DNA of 64,000 nt from Parcubacteria bacterium C7867-004 (GTDB lineage Bacteria; Patescibacteriota; Minisyncoccia; Phycocordibacterales; Phycocordibacteraceae). Positions 23,684 to 45,563 of this stretch are shown here, piece by piece (position 1 is the stretch's first letter; every line of letters begins with the position of its first letter). A program made the position numbers and the translations under genes. Under the pieces are notes generated by a model. The model saw only the letters and a program-made list of their open reading frames with translations. It was not told where the DNA came from and made no database searches. The DNA lies in the NCBI GenBank assembly GCA_001189075.1, contig LFCN01000006.1, forward strand, positions 588,866-652,865. The letters run 5' to 3'.

Positions 23684-24358
23684 ATGCGTATCCTCATCGT
23701 AGAAGACGAAGCGAAGCTCGCCGAAGCCTTGAAGCGCGGCCTTGAGAGCAAAGGCTTTGCGGTCGACTGGATCGACGACAGCGAGAAGGCGCGCACGCGC
23801 ATTATGCTCTATCGCGATGAGTACGACCTCATCCTGCTCGACCTCATGCTCCCCGGCATTGACGGCGCGACCATCACGCGCGACGCGCGCGCCGAGGGCG
23901 TGACGACCCCGATCATTGTGCTCACCGCCCGCGACGAGACCGAATACAAGGTCGAGCTGCTCAATATCGGTGCGGACGACTATCTCGCGAAACCTTTCTC
24001 CTTCGAGGAGCTCGTCGCCCGCATCAACGCAGTGCTCCGCCGTCCCGAACAGACCATCCAGACCACGCTCTCGGTCCGCGACATCGAGCTCGATCCTTCG
24101 AGCCGCACCGTGACCAAGGGCGGCAAGCCGCTGGCGCTCACGCTCAAGGAGTATTCCCTCCTCGAGTACTTCATGCGGCATCCGGATGAAGCGATGACGC
24201 GCGAGAGCATCCTCGATCATGTCTGGAGCTTCGACTTCCCTGGCTTTTCGAACGTTCTTGACGTACACATGAAGAATCTTCGTAAGAAGCTCGACACCTA
24301 TGCAGATGCACCCCTCTTTGAAACCGTCCGTGGCGTGGGTTACCGACTTAACCGATAA
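23684..24358 (+). CDS. OmpR-family response regulator
   Basis: Receiver domain ILIVEDE...LILLDLMLPGIDG. Winged-helix C-terminus VRGVGYRL. Confidence 0.9.
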   Translation: MRILIVEDEAKLAEALKRGLESKGFAVDWIDDSEKARTRIMLYRDEYDLILLDLMLPGIDGATITRDARAEGVTTPIIVLTARDETEYKVELLNIGADDYLAKPFSFEELVARINAVLRRPEQTIQTTLSVRDIELDPSSRTVTKGGKPLALTLKEYSLLEYFMRHPDEAMTRESILDHVWSFDFPGFSNVLDVHMKNLRKKLDTYADAPLFETVRGVGYRLNR

Positions 24359-25436
24359 GTACCGCTTCAACCCGTTCATCCGGGCAGCGGTGCATGTCAT
24401 CCTGTTGCAGCTCGCGCTCGGGTTGGTCTCCGTCGTACTCTTCCTCGTTGGTATCCAATACGCACAAGACCAGACTATCGAGTCGATAAGCGTCGGAATA
24501 CAAGAGGCGATGGTCACGGGCGCAACGACGACGCCCACCAACTTTGAGACCATTATAGACGGCATCCGCGCACAGACGGTGACGCTTGCGTTTGTCGGCA
24601 TCGTGCTCCTGAACCTCCTCTTCGGCTTCCTTATCGCCCGTTTTGCGCTCTGGCCGACACGCAATTCCCTCCAGTTCCAGAAGCGCTTCATCGGGAACAT
24701 TGCTCATGAGATACGGACACCGCTCGCCATCATAAAGACAAATACGGAGGTGGCGCTCTTCGATCCGAAGATACCGAAAGATGTGCGCGACACTTTCGAA
24801 GGCACGGTTACCGAACTCGACCGCATCTCGGAGACCATCAACAACCTCCTCTCCTTCGATACCCTTACCCGCCCGCGACGCATGCCGTTCGAACCGACCG
24901 ACCTCGGCGCTATCGTCGAACTCGTTGCGGAGCGGCATCAGGCACTCGCGGATTCCCGGGCAGTGCGACTTGAGACCCGCGTCGGGAAGAGCCGGATGGT
25001 CGAAGGCAACCAGACTGCGCTCGATCAGGTGGTTACCAACCTGGTTAAGAACGCCATTAACTACACGCCGGCGGATAAGGACGGAGTCGTCACTGTCACC
25101 GTCGGTCATGACGGACCGGGGAAGATCCTCCTCTCGGTCGCTGACACCGGCATAGGCATTGGCCAGAAGGATCTCTTCCATATCTTCGAACCCTTCTATC
25201 GCGGAGACACGTCGAGAGCACGCGGTATCGGCACGGGAACCTCGGGACTCGGACTCGCTATCGTGAACGAGATCGTGCGCCTGCATAAAGGCTCCATAAA
25301 CATACGCAGCACGCCGGGCATCGGTACCGAGATACGCATAACGCTTCCCGGCGCCAAAGGGGCGGGACTCAATGATCCGCTCGATAAGAACGAGTCGGAT
25401 ACGACGAACGAAGTATCGCTCGACTTCTCTTCCTAG
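24300..25436 (+). CDS. Sensor histidine kinase, partner of the OmpR regulator
   Basis: Two TM helices. H-box IAHEIRTPLAII. N/G boxes (LVKNAINYT, DTGIGI, GTGLGLAIV). Start codon uncertain; the 5' end overlaps the RR stop. Confidence 0.85.
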   Translation: MQMHPSLKPSVAWVTDLTDKYRFNPFIRAAVHVILLQLALGLVSVVLFLVGIQYAQDQTIESISVGIQEAMVTGATTTPTNFETIIDGIRAQTVTLAFVGIVLLNLLFGFLIARFALWPTRNSLQFQKRFIGNIAHEIRTPLAIIKTNTEVALFDPKIPKDVRDTFEGTVTELDRISETINNLLSFDTLTRPRRMPFEPTDLGAIVELVAERHQALADSRAVRLETRVGKSRMVEGNQTALDQVVTNLVKNAINYTPADKDGVVTVTVGHDGPGKILLSVADTGIGIGQKDLFHIFEPFYRGDTSRARGIGTGTSGLGLAIVNEIVRLHKGSINIRSTPGIGTEIRITLPGAKGAGLNDPLDKNESDTTNEVSLDFSS

Positions 25437-25642
25437 CGTTCATCTTCGGTTCACAGTAGTTCGCGTATCCTGATCGTTCGGGGAACGGAAGCAGGATGCA
25501 CGTGTGCGGCCTCTTCCGAAGCCTCGTGTTCCTTCATTTTCGGCCGGGTGTCCCGGGAAGGATGCACGGCATACGGTGAAGACCGTTACAAGCGCGCCTA
25601 ACAGAGACGCAACGGTATGATACAGAAACTGCGAGACTAGCA

Positions 25643-25679
25643 GCCGGGGCGCTGAAGGTAAAACCTTCAGCGCCCCGGC
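25643..25679. repeat. Perfect 16-bp-stem hairpin (gccggggcgctgaagg-taaaa-ccttcagcgccccggc) downstream of the HK
   Basis: Perfect inverted repeat with no flanking U-tract on either strand. Possible terminator or protein-binding site. Confidence 0.4.
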
Positions 25680-25699
25680 GCATTTCTCAGTATCTATTC

Positions 25700-25727
25700 T
25701 TGACTGCATCCCTGACAGGGGTATACT
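25700..25727 (+). promoter_or_regulatory. Near-consensus sigma70-type promoter TTGACT-16-TATACT, directed antisense into the 3' end of the MazF-like gene
   Basis: -35 at 25700-25705 and -10 at 25722-25727. The core TATACTTTcAGTACA recurs at the paralogous toxin locus (45089-45103). Confidence 0.45.
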
Positions 25728-25774
25728 TTCAGTACAAGTGCCTCCGGGCTCGCCTCCTAATGGGGGAGAAAAAG

Positions 25775-25807
25775 AAAAACCGTCAAAGCAAGTCTTTGGC
25801 GGTTTTT
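25775..25807. terminator. Bidirectional Rho-independent terminator (14-bp stem aaaaaccgtcaaag/ctttggcggttttt)
   Basis: The stem includes an A-tract and a T-tract and overlaps the last 9 codons and stop of the minus-strand toxin gene. Confidence 0.6.
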
Positions 25808-26169
25808 CTAACTCTTATAAAGCATTCTTGGTCCAAGAATCCGATTTTGTTTACGAGCCTTTTAGTATCAATTATTCGAATTTGAGACATAAGCGCCACA
25901 GCCTTCTTGCCCTCAACGTGACCTATCGGCAAACGATACCTATGCCGCTTGATAGACGTGGTTAGCGGTATGACGTAGCAAGTCTCGCGACTAATTCCTT
26001 TCAAAATAAGGACCGGACGCTGTTTTCCCTCACCCGTTCCATCCTGTTCAAAACCTATGTTAGTTCCAAGCGAACACCACCACAGTTCTCGCTCATGATA
26101 GAGCTTATTGCGCTCTTCCGAGTGAATTCTTTCTTTCAGGGAGTACCAGGTGGAAAAATCCTTCTCCAT
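25783..26169 (-). CDS. PemK/MazF-family toxin (mRNA-interferase-like) with ~30-aa N-terminal extension; no adjacent antitoxin ORF
   Basis: GFEQDGTG..RPVLIL, IPLTTS and SQIRIIDTKRLVNKIGFLD align to MazF/EndoA (GSEQ.G.RPvlvi...EQIRTIDKQRL). Local GC is ~45%. Confidence 0.75.
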   Translation of the reverse strand: MEKDFSTWYSLKERIHSEERNKLYHERELWWCSLGTNIGFEQDGTGEGKQRPVLILKGISRETCYVIPLTTSIKRHRYRLPIGHVEGKKAVALMSQIRIIDTKRLVNKIGFLDQECFIRVRKTAKDLL

Positions 26170-26231
26170 TTGCCGAGGATACGGTCCTGGTCCTCAAGGG
26201 AAGATGAAATTTAGATAATTAAATTCTAAAG

Positions 26232-27023
26232 CTACTGCTTCAGTCCCGCTCCGCGCTTAAAGAGGATGATGGTCACTATGAACGCAAGCAGCGTGAGTCC
26301 GCCCATAACTTCGAAGGCAAGCGAAAGTGGCACGTCCGAGATGCCGAGAAATCCGTAGCGGAACGCGTTAACCATGTAGAGGATCGGGTTGAACAGGGAG
26401 ACCGTCTGGAACAGAGGCGGGAGCTGGTCGATCGAATAGAAGACACCTCCCAGGTACGTGAGCGGAGTGAGCACGAACGTCGGTACGATGTTTATCGCAT
26501 CAAAGGACTTCGCGAAGATCGCGTTAATAAGACCCAGCAGCGAGAACAAAAGGGCCGTAAGGAACGCTGCGGCGAATATGACACCAACGGAGAAGAGCGT
26601 GAGATGCGTGAAGAAGAGCGAGACGCCGATCACGATAAGACCGACGAGGAACGCGCGGATGAGGCCGCCCGAGACGAAGCCTGCGATAACCACCCAGCTC
26701 GGCATCGGAGACACGAGGATTTCATCGATGGTGCGAATCCACTTCGCGAAATAGAAGGTGGAGACGGTGTTCATGTACGAGCTCGTGATCACTGACATCA
26801 TGATGAGTCCAGGCACGATGAACTGGATATAGGGGAATCCGTGGATAGCGTCGACCTGGCTGCCAATGAACGTGCCGAAGATTGCGAAGTAGAGCGCCAT
26901 CGTTATAGCTGGCGGAAGCAGGGTCTGACTCCATATGCGCACGATGCGCCGGAAGTCCTTGCGGACCATGGTGTAGAACCCGATGAGTATTGGTGAGCGG
27001 GTCATATTAGGTATCCTTCTCAA
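26232..27023 (-). CDS. ABC-2-type transporter permease
   Basis: 6 TM helices; overlaps the upstream ATPase gene by 17 nt. Confidence 0.75.
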   Translation of the reverse strand: MRRIPNMTRSPILIGFYTMVRKDFRRIVRIWSQTLLPPAITMALYFAIFGTFIGSQVDAIHGFPYIQFIVPGLIMMSVITSSYMNTVSTFYFAKWIRTIDEILVSPMPSWVVIAGFVSGGLIRAFLVGLIVIGVSLFFTHLTLFSVGVIFAAAFLTALLFSLLGLINAIFAKSFDAINIVPTFVLTPLTYLGGVFYSIDQLPPLFQTVSLFNPILYMVNAFRYGFLGISDVPLSLAFEVMGGLTLLAFIVTIILFKRGAGLKQ

Positions 27024-45065: not shown

Positions 45066-45094
45066 TTGATTTCTTATACTTAGACTTATATACT
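45066..45094 (+). promoter_or_regulatory. sigma70-type promoter TTGATT-17-TATACT facing the second MazF-like gene antisense
   Basis: -35 at 45066-45071, -10 at 45089-45094. Followed by TTaAGTACA...CTAATG, conserved with locus 1 (25722-25765). Confidence 0.45.
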
Positions 45095-45170
45095 TTAAGT
45101 ACATTAGGGTGAGAGCTCTAATGACTATGGCTTCGGCCCCGCCCCGCTCGCAAGAGTGGGGCAAACTAGT

Positions 45171-45563
45171 TTACGCAAATAGAATTTGCTTCAGGCGCTT
45201 ACGTAAGCATTCGAAGGTTTCGATATCAAGAATATCGATTCTTCGTATGAGTCGCTTTGCATCTATTAAACGCACTTGCGATAGGTTTGCACATGCTTCC
45301 CGCTTTCCAACCATTCCGAGTGGTAAATAATATTCCCCTTTCTTCATTTTTCCTGTTAGAGCAACTCCAAAAAAGGTATTCCGATTAAATGCTCGAATCA
45401 CTACAATGGGCCTGTCGAAGTTCTTTCCAGTCCCATCTTGTTCGAATCCTATGTTCACGCCGAGAGCACATGACCATATCTCACGCTCTCGATAATGAGG
45501 ATACGTTCCGCGAACGTTCCTGAATTTCTTGCTCTTATTCCACTCATCGAAGTCCTTTTCCAT
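45171..45563 (-). CDS. PemK/MazF-family toxin paralog (130 aa) with the same N-terminal extension; no adjacent antitoxin ORF
   Basis: MEKDF..W...K...........Y.ERE.W.C.LG.NIGFEQDGTG shared with 25783-26169. SQVRLIDAKRLIRRIDILD matches the MazF C-terminal motif. Local GC ~42%. Confidence 0.75.
   Translation of the reverse strand: MEKDFDEWNKSKKFRNVRGTYPHYREREIWSCALGVNIGFEQDGTGKNFDRPIVVIRAFNRNTFFGVALTGKMKKGEYYLPLGMVGKREACANLSQVRLIDAKRLIRRIDILDIETFECLRKRLKQILFA

Follow-up and report, generated by a model that had tools for sequence, protein, structure and literature searches.

A MazF-family toxin gene of Parcubacteria and a conserved convergent gene for a folded small RNA, a candidate antitoxin

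Introduction

Few bacterial toxins have been studied as thoroughly as MazF, which to our knowledge has always been described together with a protein antitoxin. Here we examine a toxin gene of the MazF/PemK family in a 64,000-nt stretch of the genome of Parcubacteria bacterium C7867-004 (contig LFCN01000006.1, positions 588,866 to 652,865; hereafter the window), toward which a conserved gene for a folded small RNA is directed on the opposite strand. We propose that the two form a self-contained toxin-antitoxin (TA) module of about 470 bp, in which a MazF-family toxin would be countered by a convergent RNA antitoxin of ~77 nt acting by antisense pairing, a reading to which we give a probability of roughly 0.45. 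A TA system with an RNA antitoxin is a known kind of system; what would be new is the pairing of this toxin with an RNA, and the RNA family itself.

The closest described arrangement is that of the convergent type I systems, in which the two RNAs overlap at their 3' ends and regulation depends on RNase III (PMC6562991). In the par locus, the toxin mRNA and the antitoxin RNA share a bidirectional terminator (PMC7472228), and few phyla are reported to have type I systems (PMC12390103). Our locus resembles txpA/RatA, bsrG/SR4, bsrE/SR5 and yonT/SR6 of Bacillus subtilis, and par RNA I/RNA II of Enterococcus faecalis, by its convergent genes and its 3' complementarity, by a strong promoter of the antitoxin RNA and the absence of a protein antitoxin (both predicted here from the sequence), and, as far as par is concerned, by a single shared bidirectional terminator. 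It differs from them in several respects: the toxin is a 128-aa protein of the MazF fold instead of a small membrane peptide, the two genes overlap only at the terminator (~40 nt), the RNA carries a strongly conserved 5' module that is not complementary to the toxin mRNA, no second complementary region comparable to the DRa/DRb of par was found, and the host belongs to the Parcubacteria.

The type III systems (ToxIN, CptIN, TenpIN, AbiQ) constitute the second point of reference. Like our locus, they associate an endoribonuclease of the wider MazF/Kid/CcdB-like fold with a non-coding RNA, with no protein antitoxin (PMC5086642). However, their RNA is made of tandem repeats located upstream of the toxin gene, on the same strand, and is cut by the toxin into pseudoknotted monomers, whereas the RNA described here is single-copy, convergent and composed of hairpins, without repeats; the toxin, moreover, is MazF proper (PF02452), and not ToxN, CptN or TenpN. 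With the type II systems MazEF, PemIK and EndoA-EndoAI, the locus shares the toxin family, the fold and the catalytic Arg and Thr, but it shows an extra N-terminal helix and, in place of a MazE/PemI-type gene, a convergent RNA gene. Finally, in the type I pair SymE/SymR of Escherichia coli, SymE has the AbrB/MazE fold and not the MazF fold, and SymR overlaps the 5' end of symE and its ribosome-binding site. This pair resembles our locus in setting a toxin protein associated with RNA cleavage against a cis-encoded antisense RNA (PMC1891008).

A Conserved RNA Gene Convergent to the Toxin Gene

The elements of the locus are the following.

25783-26169, minus strand: toxin gene, an open reading frame (ORF) of 128 aa matching Pfam PF02452, of the MazF/PemK fold, predicted endoribonuclease
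25700-25727, plus strand: predicted promoter of the small RNA, with -35 box TTGACT (25700-25705), 16-nt spacer and -10 box TATACT (25722-25727), 10/12 consensus matches
25734 to about 25810, plus strand: predicted small RNA of ~77 nt, consisting of the single-stranded 5' end ACAAGUG, helices P1 and P2, an A-rich linker, the terminator P3 and a U-tract
25740-25749, plus strand: P1, 3-bp stem, loop UCCG at this locus
25753-25766, plus strand: P2, 5-bp GC stem, loop UAAU at this locus
25775-25807, both strands: P3, bidirectional intrinsic terminator hairpin with its loop at 25789-25793 and the toxin stop codon (25783-25785) inside

The comparison is based on 80 loci, nearly all in Patescibacteria/Parcubacteria, taken from a scan of species-representative genomes that gave at least 576 matches; the toxin family itself comprises more than 1,300 protein clusters. 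A covariance model of the RNA (R1), built from a MAFFT alignment of 65 sequences, matches opposite the toxin in all 78 assessable loci, the other two being cut by a run of N and by a contig end, with scores of 59-96 bits in 77 of them and 27 bits in L073. The RNA of the window scores 86.8 bits (E=2e-21). In all loci the RNA gene is present as a single copy and in convergent orientation. A conserved folded-RNA gene appears to face the toxin in about 100 related genomes of very small, mostly uncultured bacteria.

The ends of the small RNA are deduced from the promoter spacing and from the terminator. Promoter hexamers with at least 9 of 12 consensus matches are found at the expected place in 67 of 79 loci, as against 21 of 400 random 50-mers, and in 62/79 a gap of exactly 6 nt separates the -10 box from the conserved A of ACAARUG. 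The consensus layout across loci is TTGACW, a spacer of 16-17 nt, TATAMT, then 6 nt, with a TG extended -10 in 37/79. As predicted here, the small RNA gene has a sigma-70 promoter close to the consensus, at a constant distance. At the locus of the window, a GC-rich hairpin of 16 bp (GCCGGGGCGCTGAAGG / CCTTCAGCGCCCCGGC, loop UAAAA, then GCAUUUCUC) is found on the plus strand at 25643-25679, ~200 nt past the end of a histidine kinase gene (24300-25436) and 20 nt upstream of the -35 box. It lies outside the conserved module and is probably a terminator that screens the RNA promoter from upstream transcription.

On the strand opposite to the toxin, the conserved block reads ACAARUG, G[C/G]C-UUCG-G[G/C]C, CUCGCC and a variable GC hairpin, and it continues with an A-rich linker of variable length ending in AGAAAAG, then CCGUCAGAG-loop-CUUUGACGG and UUUUCKUAU. 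The first 22 nt of the RNA are 86% identical across loci, compared with 60% for the toxin DNA and 38% for the third codon positions of the toxin. The P1 loop is UUCG in 64/65 relatives, and the middle pair of this stem passes from C-G to G-C in 30 of 81 sequences without a single broken pair. The P2 loop is a GNRA in 49/76 relatives and a UNCG in 5/76, with compensatory changes in all five pairs of the stem. In P3, such changes affect eight of the nine main-stem pairs and the loop-closing pair (10 pairs in all).

The RNA of the window has a minimum free energy of -36.2 kcal/mol (z=-5.6), and in the RNAalifold consensus 17 of 20 pairs carry compensatory changes. In the MAFFT alignment of the 65 trimmed sequences, which was not fitted to the covariance model, pairing in the three-helix structure amounts to 91.4%, compared with 82.0% in shuffles (0/500), with 129 double-change cells against 36.5, while slid controls are 38-56% paired. 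The alignment fitted to the model, which is biased toward the modelled structure, gives 96.8% of paired cells against 84.1% in shuffles (41-56% in slid controls), 204 double-change cells against 52.7, and 15 compensatory pairs out of 18. All this argues for three covarying helices, P1, P2 and P3. A scan of the whole window against Rfam 15 at gathering scores returned no match, and a permissive scan of 25650-25900 gave at best 24.6 bits for a cutoff of 59 bits, i.e., noise. The small RNA would thus represent a new RNA family with strong covariation.

Since such a block is conserved as double-stranded DNA, symmetrically between its two strands, one could imagine that there is no independent RNA at all, and that we are looking at the 3' untranslated region and terminator of the toxin mRNA, or at a DNA-level site of recombination or protein binding, next to a fortuitous promoter. 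Against this stand the fixed spacing of the promoter hexamers described above and the compensatory changes in the helices, which indicate pairing in RNA rather than a DNA site. The strand can also be told from loop identities, G.U pairs and folding energies, which all assign the fold to the anti-toxin strand. Indeed, GNRA or UNCG loops are read in P2 on this strand in 54 of 76 sequences and on the toxin strand in 1, the 5' domain is more stable on it in 73 of 80 loci, and G.U pairs outnumber A.C pairs by 59 to 12 in the terminator, which is 96.2% paired as small RNA (plus strand) and 88.9% as toxin mRNA. We therefore hold an explanation without an independent RNA to be very improbable.

The original prediction, made from the letters of this stretch, had brought together a MazF-type toxin, a convergent TTGACT-16-TATACT promoter, a bidirectional terminator, a short opposite-strand RNA and the lack of an adjacent protein antitoxin. 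The sequence elements named there lie where it placed them. The promoter proved conserved, as did the terminator enclosing the toxin stop codon; the short RNA is now predicted from promoter, terminator and covariation together, and the two claims on the protein side were borne out as well, as detailed below.

A Predicted Terminator Overlapping the 3' End of the Toxin Gene

The arms of P3, AAAAACCGTCAAAG (25775-25788) and CTTTGGCGGTTTTT (25794-25807), form 14 bp and overlap the last eight codons and the stop codon of the toxin. A terminator scanner missed this hairpin because its A/T runs pair with each other, which consumes the T tail. The 3' arm and the U-tract correspond to the reverse complement of the toxin codons R-K-T-A-K, and the codon usage of this region is peculiar: the AAA:AAG ratio for Lys is 138:11 in the last eight codons versus 578:316 elsewhere, 69 of the 70 Arg residues at codon -8 are encoded by AGA or CGA versus 235 of 672 elsewhere, and the Ile at codon -9 is mainly ATA. 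Third-position identity reaches 63.5% in the last 10 codons, compared with 38.5% in the rest of the gene. The biased Lys, Arg and Ile codons account for the U-tract of the RNA, and the C-terminal codons of the toxin are biased so as to provide the convergent gene with its terminator. The terminator seems to be truly bidirectional, as the A-run that precedes the hairpin supplies the toxin mRNA with a U-tract of its own. At the sequence level, an antisense small RNA gene thus overlaps the transcription unit of the toxin, as in type I systems.

The Toxin and the Absence of a Protein Antitoxin

The product of the 128-aa ORF is a true member of the MazF/PemK family by its profile, its fold and its catalytic Arg and Thr. 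It matches the PemK_toxin profile PF02452 with 51.5 bits (E=1.3e-13), for a curated cutoff of 23.1 bits. A Foldseek search against the PDB with its AlphaFold2 (AF2) model, which has a mean predicted local distance difference test (pLDDT) score of 80.3, finds MoxT, YdcE and MazF as best matches (E ~5e-7), and the top 50 matches are MazF/MoxT/YdcE throughout, with query-normalised template modelling (TM) scores of 0.60-0.69. Among 20 relatives, R51 is invariant and T70 is conserved at 90% or more; these residues align with the catalytic R25 and T48 of B. subtilis MazF, in MazF/MoxT motifs RP and IT(A)Q. The protein can thus be considered a putative sequence-specific RNase and toxin by family membership. 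It also carries an N-terminal helix (residues 5-18) that classical MazF proteins lack, and K3, F5, W8 and K12 in this region are invariant among the relatives. PADLOC gave no match that would make it a known defence-system protein.

On the 5' side of the gene, only 62 nt separate the stop codon of an ABC permease gene from the toxin start. In about 20 of 59 loci (e.g., L007, L008, L041, L047 and L067), a -10-like box lies 5-12 nt 5' of the toxin start codon, with a poor -35 box, and a Shine-Dalgarno-like motif precedes the ATG in one of the 59. The sequences suggest a toxin mRNA that may be weakly transcribed and possibly leaderless. A leaderless mRNA was discarded as a distinguishing trait, the Shine-Dalgarno-like motif being present in only 7.5% of long control ORFs as well, with crude start calls.

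No MazE/PemI-type gene adjoins the toxin at any of the 80 loci. Clustering across these loci of every stop-to-stop frame of 30 aa or more within 450 nt of the toxin revealed no conserved ORF on either side; outside the toxin footprint, no family is present in more than 4 of the 80 loci, and a hidden protein antitoxin beside the toxin was rejected on this ground. An adjacent and co-transcribed protein antitoxin gene, as the type II MazEF systems have, is thus found neither at the locus nor at its 80 relatives. The flanks of the module, both upstream and downstream, are unrelated from locus to locus. The sole recurring neighbour, in 3 of 80 loci (positions ~2550-2995 of L059, L063 and L066), is a common gene placed directly upstream of the toxin, whose product ends in ...YKPIYP...V(V/I)RKY. 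A peptide encoded by the small RNA itself was also rejected: the frames that start at the RUG of nt 5-7 span 6 to 117 codons in three registers and are not conserved, and this RUG is often AGG in the paralog subfamily described below. For the genome of C7867-004, the question of a protein antitoxin was addressed in the 64 kb of the window, out of a contig of at least 686 kb.

A Paralogous Locus and Its Subfamily

The window contains a second toxin gene with a comparable organisation.

45171-45563, minus strand: paralogous toxin of 130 aa, 44% identical to the first; PF02452 36.8 bits, E=5e-9
45066-45094, plus strand: promoter-like site facing the paralog, TTGATT-17-TATACT, 9/12 matches
45101-45178, plus strand: variant small RNA of the paralog, with an extra 5' hairpin, ACUAUG, P1 (45129-45138) and P2 (45142-45161, GCAA loop)

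The geometry of the promoter is that of the first locus, the -10 box ending 6 nt before the A at 45101. The original prediction had seen the same promoter core in front of both toxins; a promoter-like site does face the paralog, but the shared TATACTTTnAGTACA covers only the -10 box and the start region, and the element that is truly conserved is the RNA downstream of TATACTTTnAGTACA, which begins in the paralog after the extra 23-nt hairpin. The corresponding insertion, ACAUUAGGGUGAGAGCUCUAAUG (45102-45123, plus strand), folds into a hairpin of 9 bp between the predicted start and the ACUAUG-P1 module, and it is absent from the relatives of the paralog. Model R1 matches the paralog RNA in part only (45124-45178, 14.5 bits, E=0.25), and no recognisable in-ORF terminator was seen in it. 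An exact-sequence look-up of the paralog protein returned no record.

Among 55 metagenome relatives of the paralog, 24 distinct loci are at least 50% identical to it, and 23 of these carry ACAAAUG-GCUUCGGC-CUCGCC-P2, at 39-57 nt from the toxin stop. A strong promoter is present in 26 of the 28 module-bearing loci of this set. These relatives have no long in-ORF terminator; P2 and a U-rich stretch end approximately at the stop codon. Together with the 78 orthologous loci, they settle in the positive the check, proposed along with the original prediction, of whether related loci keep the arrangement. The constant features of the system are the 5' module and the convergent position.

A Module with the Behaviour of a Mobile Element

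Tandem modules are found in L015, L028, L041, L067 and L071, with second toxin copies at 150-700 nt from the first. These arrays consist of two or three modules of different subfamilies (toxins 35-48% identical), and each module has a convergent promoter and a variant RNA of its own. The distant tandem paralogs have different RNAs but the same layout, with a consensus promoter, an ACA start and small GC hairpins. The GC content of the toxin gene is 44.4% and that of the paralog 42.5%, in a window at 56.9%; the ~60% previously assumed for the genome was slightly high. With its multiple copies, tandem arrays, varied neighbours and low GC in a GC-rich genome, the module seems to behave as a mobile TA element.

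The RNA gene even appears to outlive the toxin. In L053 (2661-2934), an internally deleted toxin remnant, with a 72-aa ORF that keeps the N- and C-terminal ends, retains its RNA gene (51.5 bits), and in L079 (2840-2923) an RNA copy of 61 bits, with its own terminator, stands directly after an unrelated gene of 586 aa. Complete modules were also observed on contigs labelled Chitinophagaceae, Bacteroidia and Nanoarchaeota (L048, on the 330,795-bp contig CBDFFM010000020.1, L047 and L010), which reflects either horizontal transfer outside Patescibacteria or mis-binned contigs. A phage-borne module was looked for in IMG/VR and rejected, with no exact match to the RNA motif and no relatives of the toxin.

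This behaviour bears on the possibility that the RNA is real and yet not an antitoxin. It could be a fine-tuner, or a substrate or partner of a MazF-like enzyme with a housekeeping or defence role, the toxin being neutralised by a protein encoded elsewhere, or being non-toxic at its natural levels. For one type II mazEF locus, an antisense RNA with a mere tuning role has been described (PMC8749433), and the fraction of the contig covered here would leave room for such a protein. On the other hand, RNA and toxin co-occur strictly (78/78 loci), the module moves as a unit among unrelated neighbourhoods with no conserved protein partner travelling along, and the RNA gene is kept beside a decayed toxin, so that we consider this explanation improbable, if clearly less so than the absence of any RNA.

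How Could the RNA Act?

The antitoxin role of the small RNA is one that we infer from its sequence and setting. By analogy with the convergent type I systems, antisense pairing at the shared terminator is most likely its primary action. Both RNAs would end at the shared hairpin and would be complementary over ~40 nt; the small RNA, being abundant, would pair with the 3' end of the toxin mRNA, starting loop to loop, and the duplex would be cut by RNase III, or the mRNA would lose its protective hairpin, leading in both cases to its decay. RatA/txpA, SR4/bsrG and RNA II/fst work in this way. If transcription of the module stopped, the RNA would decay first and toxin would be made. The 5' module ACAARUG-P1-CUCGCC-P2 probably has a second function, such as the binding of the toxin protein or of a host factor, because it is not complementary to a normally terminated toxin mRNA.

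Several points weigh against such an antisense action. The overlap is short (~40 nt, i.e., the terminator hairpin and its flanks) and is engaged in stable hairpins on both RNAs, and the most conserved part of the RNA, nt 1-22, lies outside it. A second complementary site in the toxin mRNA was sought in three ways and not found: RNAduplex pairs the 5' domain of the RNA with the toxin mRNA no better than with shuffles (mean z +0.14), cognate and non-cognate RNA-mRNA pairs are alike (-14.9 and -14.2 kcal/mol), and a perfect complementary 9-mer recurs in at most 3 of 45 loci. The paralog subfamily keeps the 5' module without the in-ORF terminator, and the long 3' overlap is thus not universal. Moreover, an antidote acting at the mRNA level would leave the MazF protein that is already made uninhibited, a MazE-like gene may exist elsewhere in the genome, beyond the 64 kb examined, and the promoter, the start site and the 3' end are predictions. 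Of the cis-antisense proposal with which the locus was first singled out, the overlap at the terminator therefore stands, and it is a purely antisense mode that has become doubtful, given the conserved 5' module outside the overlap and the lack of a second site.

The same conservation directs attention to the protein. The small RNA could bind MazF through its 5' module (ACAARUG, the UUCG hairpin and P2), in a manner reminiscent of type III systems, either by blocking the RNA-binding groove or as a pseudo-substrate that cannot be cleaved, in which case the convergent overlap would only be an economical way to share a terminator. The 5' module is far better conserved than the toxin DNA, as seen above, in a way that complementarity does not explain, and no other part is retained across the two toxin subfamilies and the more distant paralogs. 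Moreover, RNA inhibits the fold relatives ToxN and CptN (PMC5086642), a conserved additional helix at the N-terminus, basic and aromatic in character and with invariant K3, F5, W8 and K12, sets the toxin apart from classical MazF, and an enzyme would be better controlled by an inhibitor acting on the protein than by one acting on its mRNA. However, repeats, a position upstream on the same strand and processing by the toxin are the defining traits of known type III systems, and they count against this candidate: Tandem Repeats Finder returned 0 rows on 25300-26500, the RNA gene does not precede the toxin gene on its strand, and nothing points to cleavage of the RNA by the toxin. That the RNA gene always converges on the toxin gene and abuts its 3' end speaks rather for a relationship in cis. 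Finally, the 5' k-mers of the RNA are not avoided in the ORF of the toxin, where 12 of them show no depletion relative to synonymous shuffles (|z|<2), and their being a recognition site of the toxin was rejected. We see a type III-like action as a serious, if less probable, rival of antisense pairing, or as an additional mode.

The two modes could also be combined. In the Candidate Phyla Radiation (CPR), a large and so far unnoticed hybrid class of TA systems might exist in which MazF is held, in place of MazE, by a single-copy structured RNA whose 3' end pairs with the mRNA, as in type I, and whose 5' module binds the N-terminal helix of the toxin, as in type III. We put this forward tentatively, with about as much confidence as the type III-like action.

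Novelty and Significance

In our literature searches we found neither this RNA nor any MazF/PemK toxin paired with an RNA antitoxin, and no report of an RNA antitoxin in the CPR. In its main text, the 224-motif survey makes no mention of pemK, MazF or Parcubacteria, and the word toxin appears there only in a remark on a plasmid toxin/anti-toxin and in the title of a reference.

If our reading is correct, RNA antitoxins would extend to MazF proper, with at least 576 loci in species-representative genomes, and to the CPR, and this would be the first MazF proper associated with an RNA antitoxin, possibly as a hybrid of two TA types. The toxin gene also offers a clear case in which the C-terminal codons of a protein are adapted to provide the other strand with a terminator. 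The module is compact enough (470 bp) for the type I and type III modes to be separated by simple recoding. The hosts are mostly uncultured, and such modules would be among the few of their regulatory systems that can be tested in a heterologous host.

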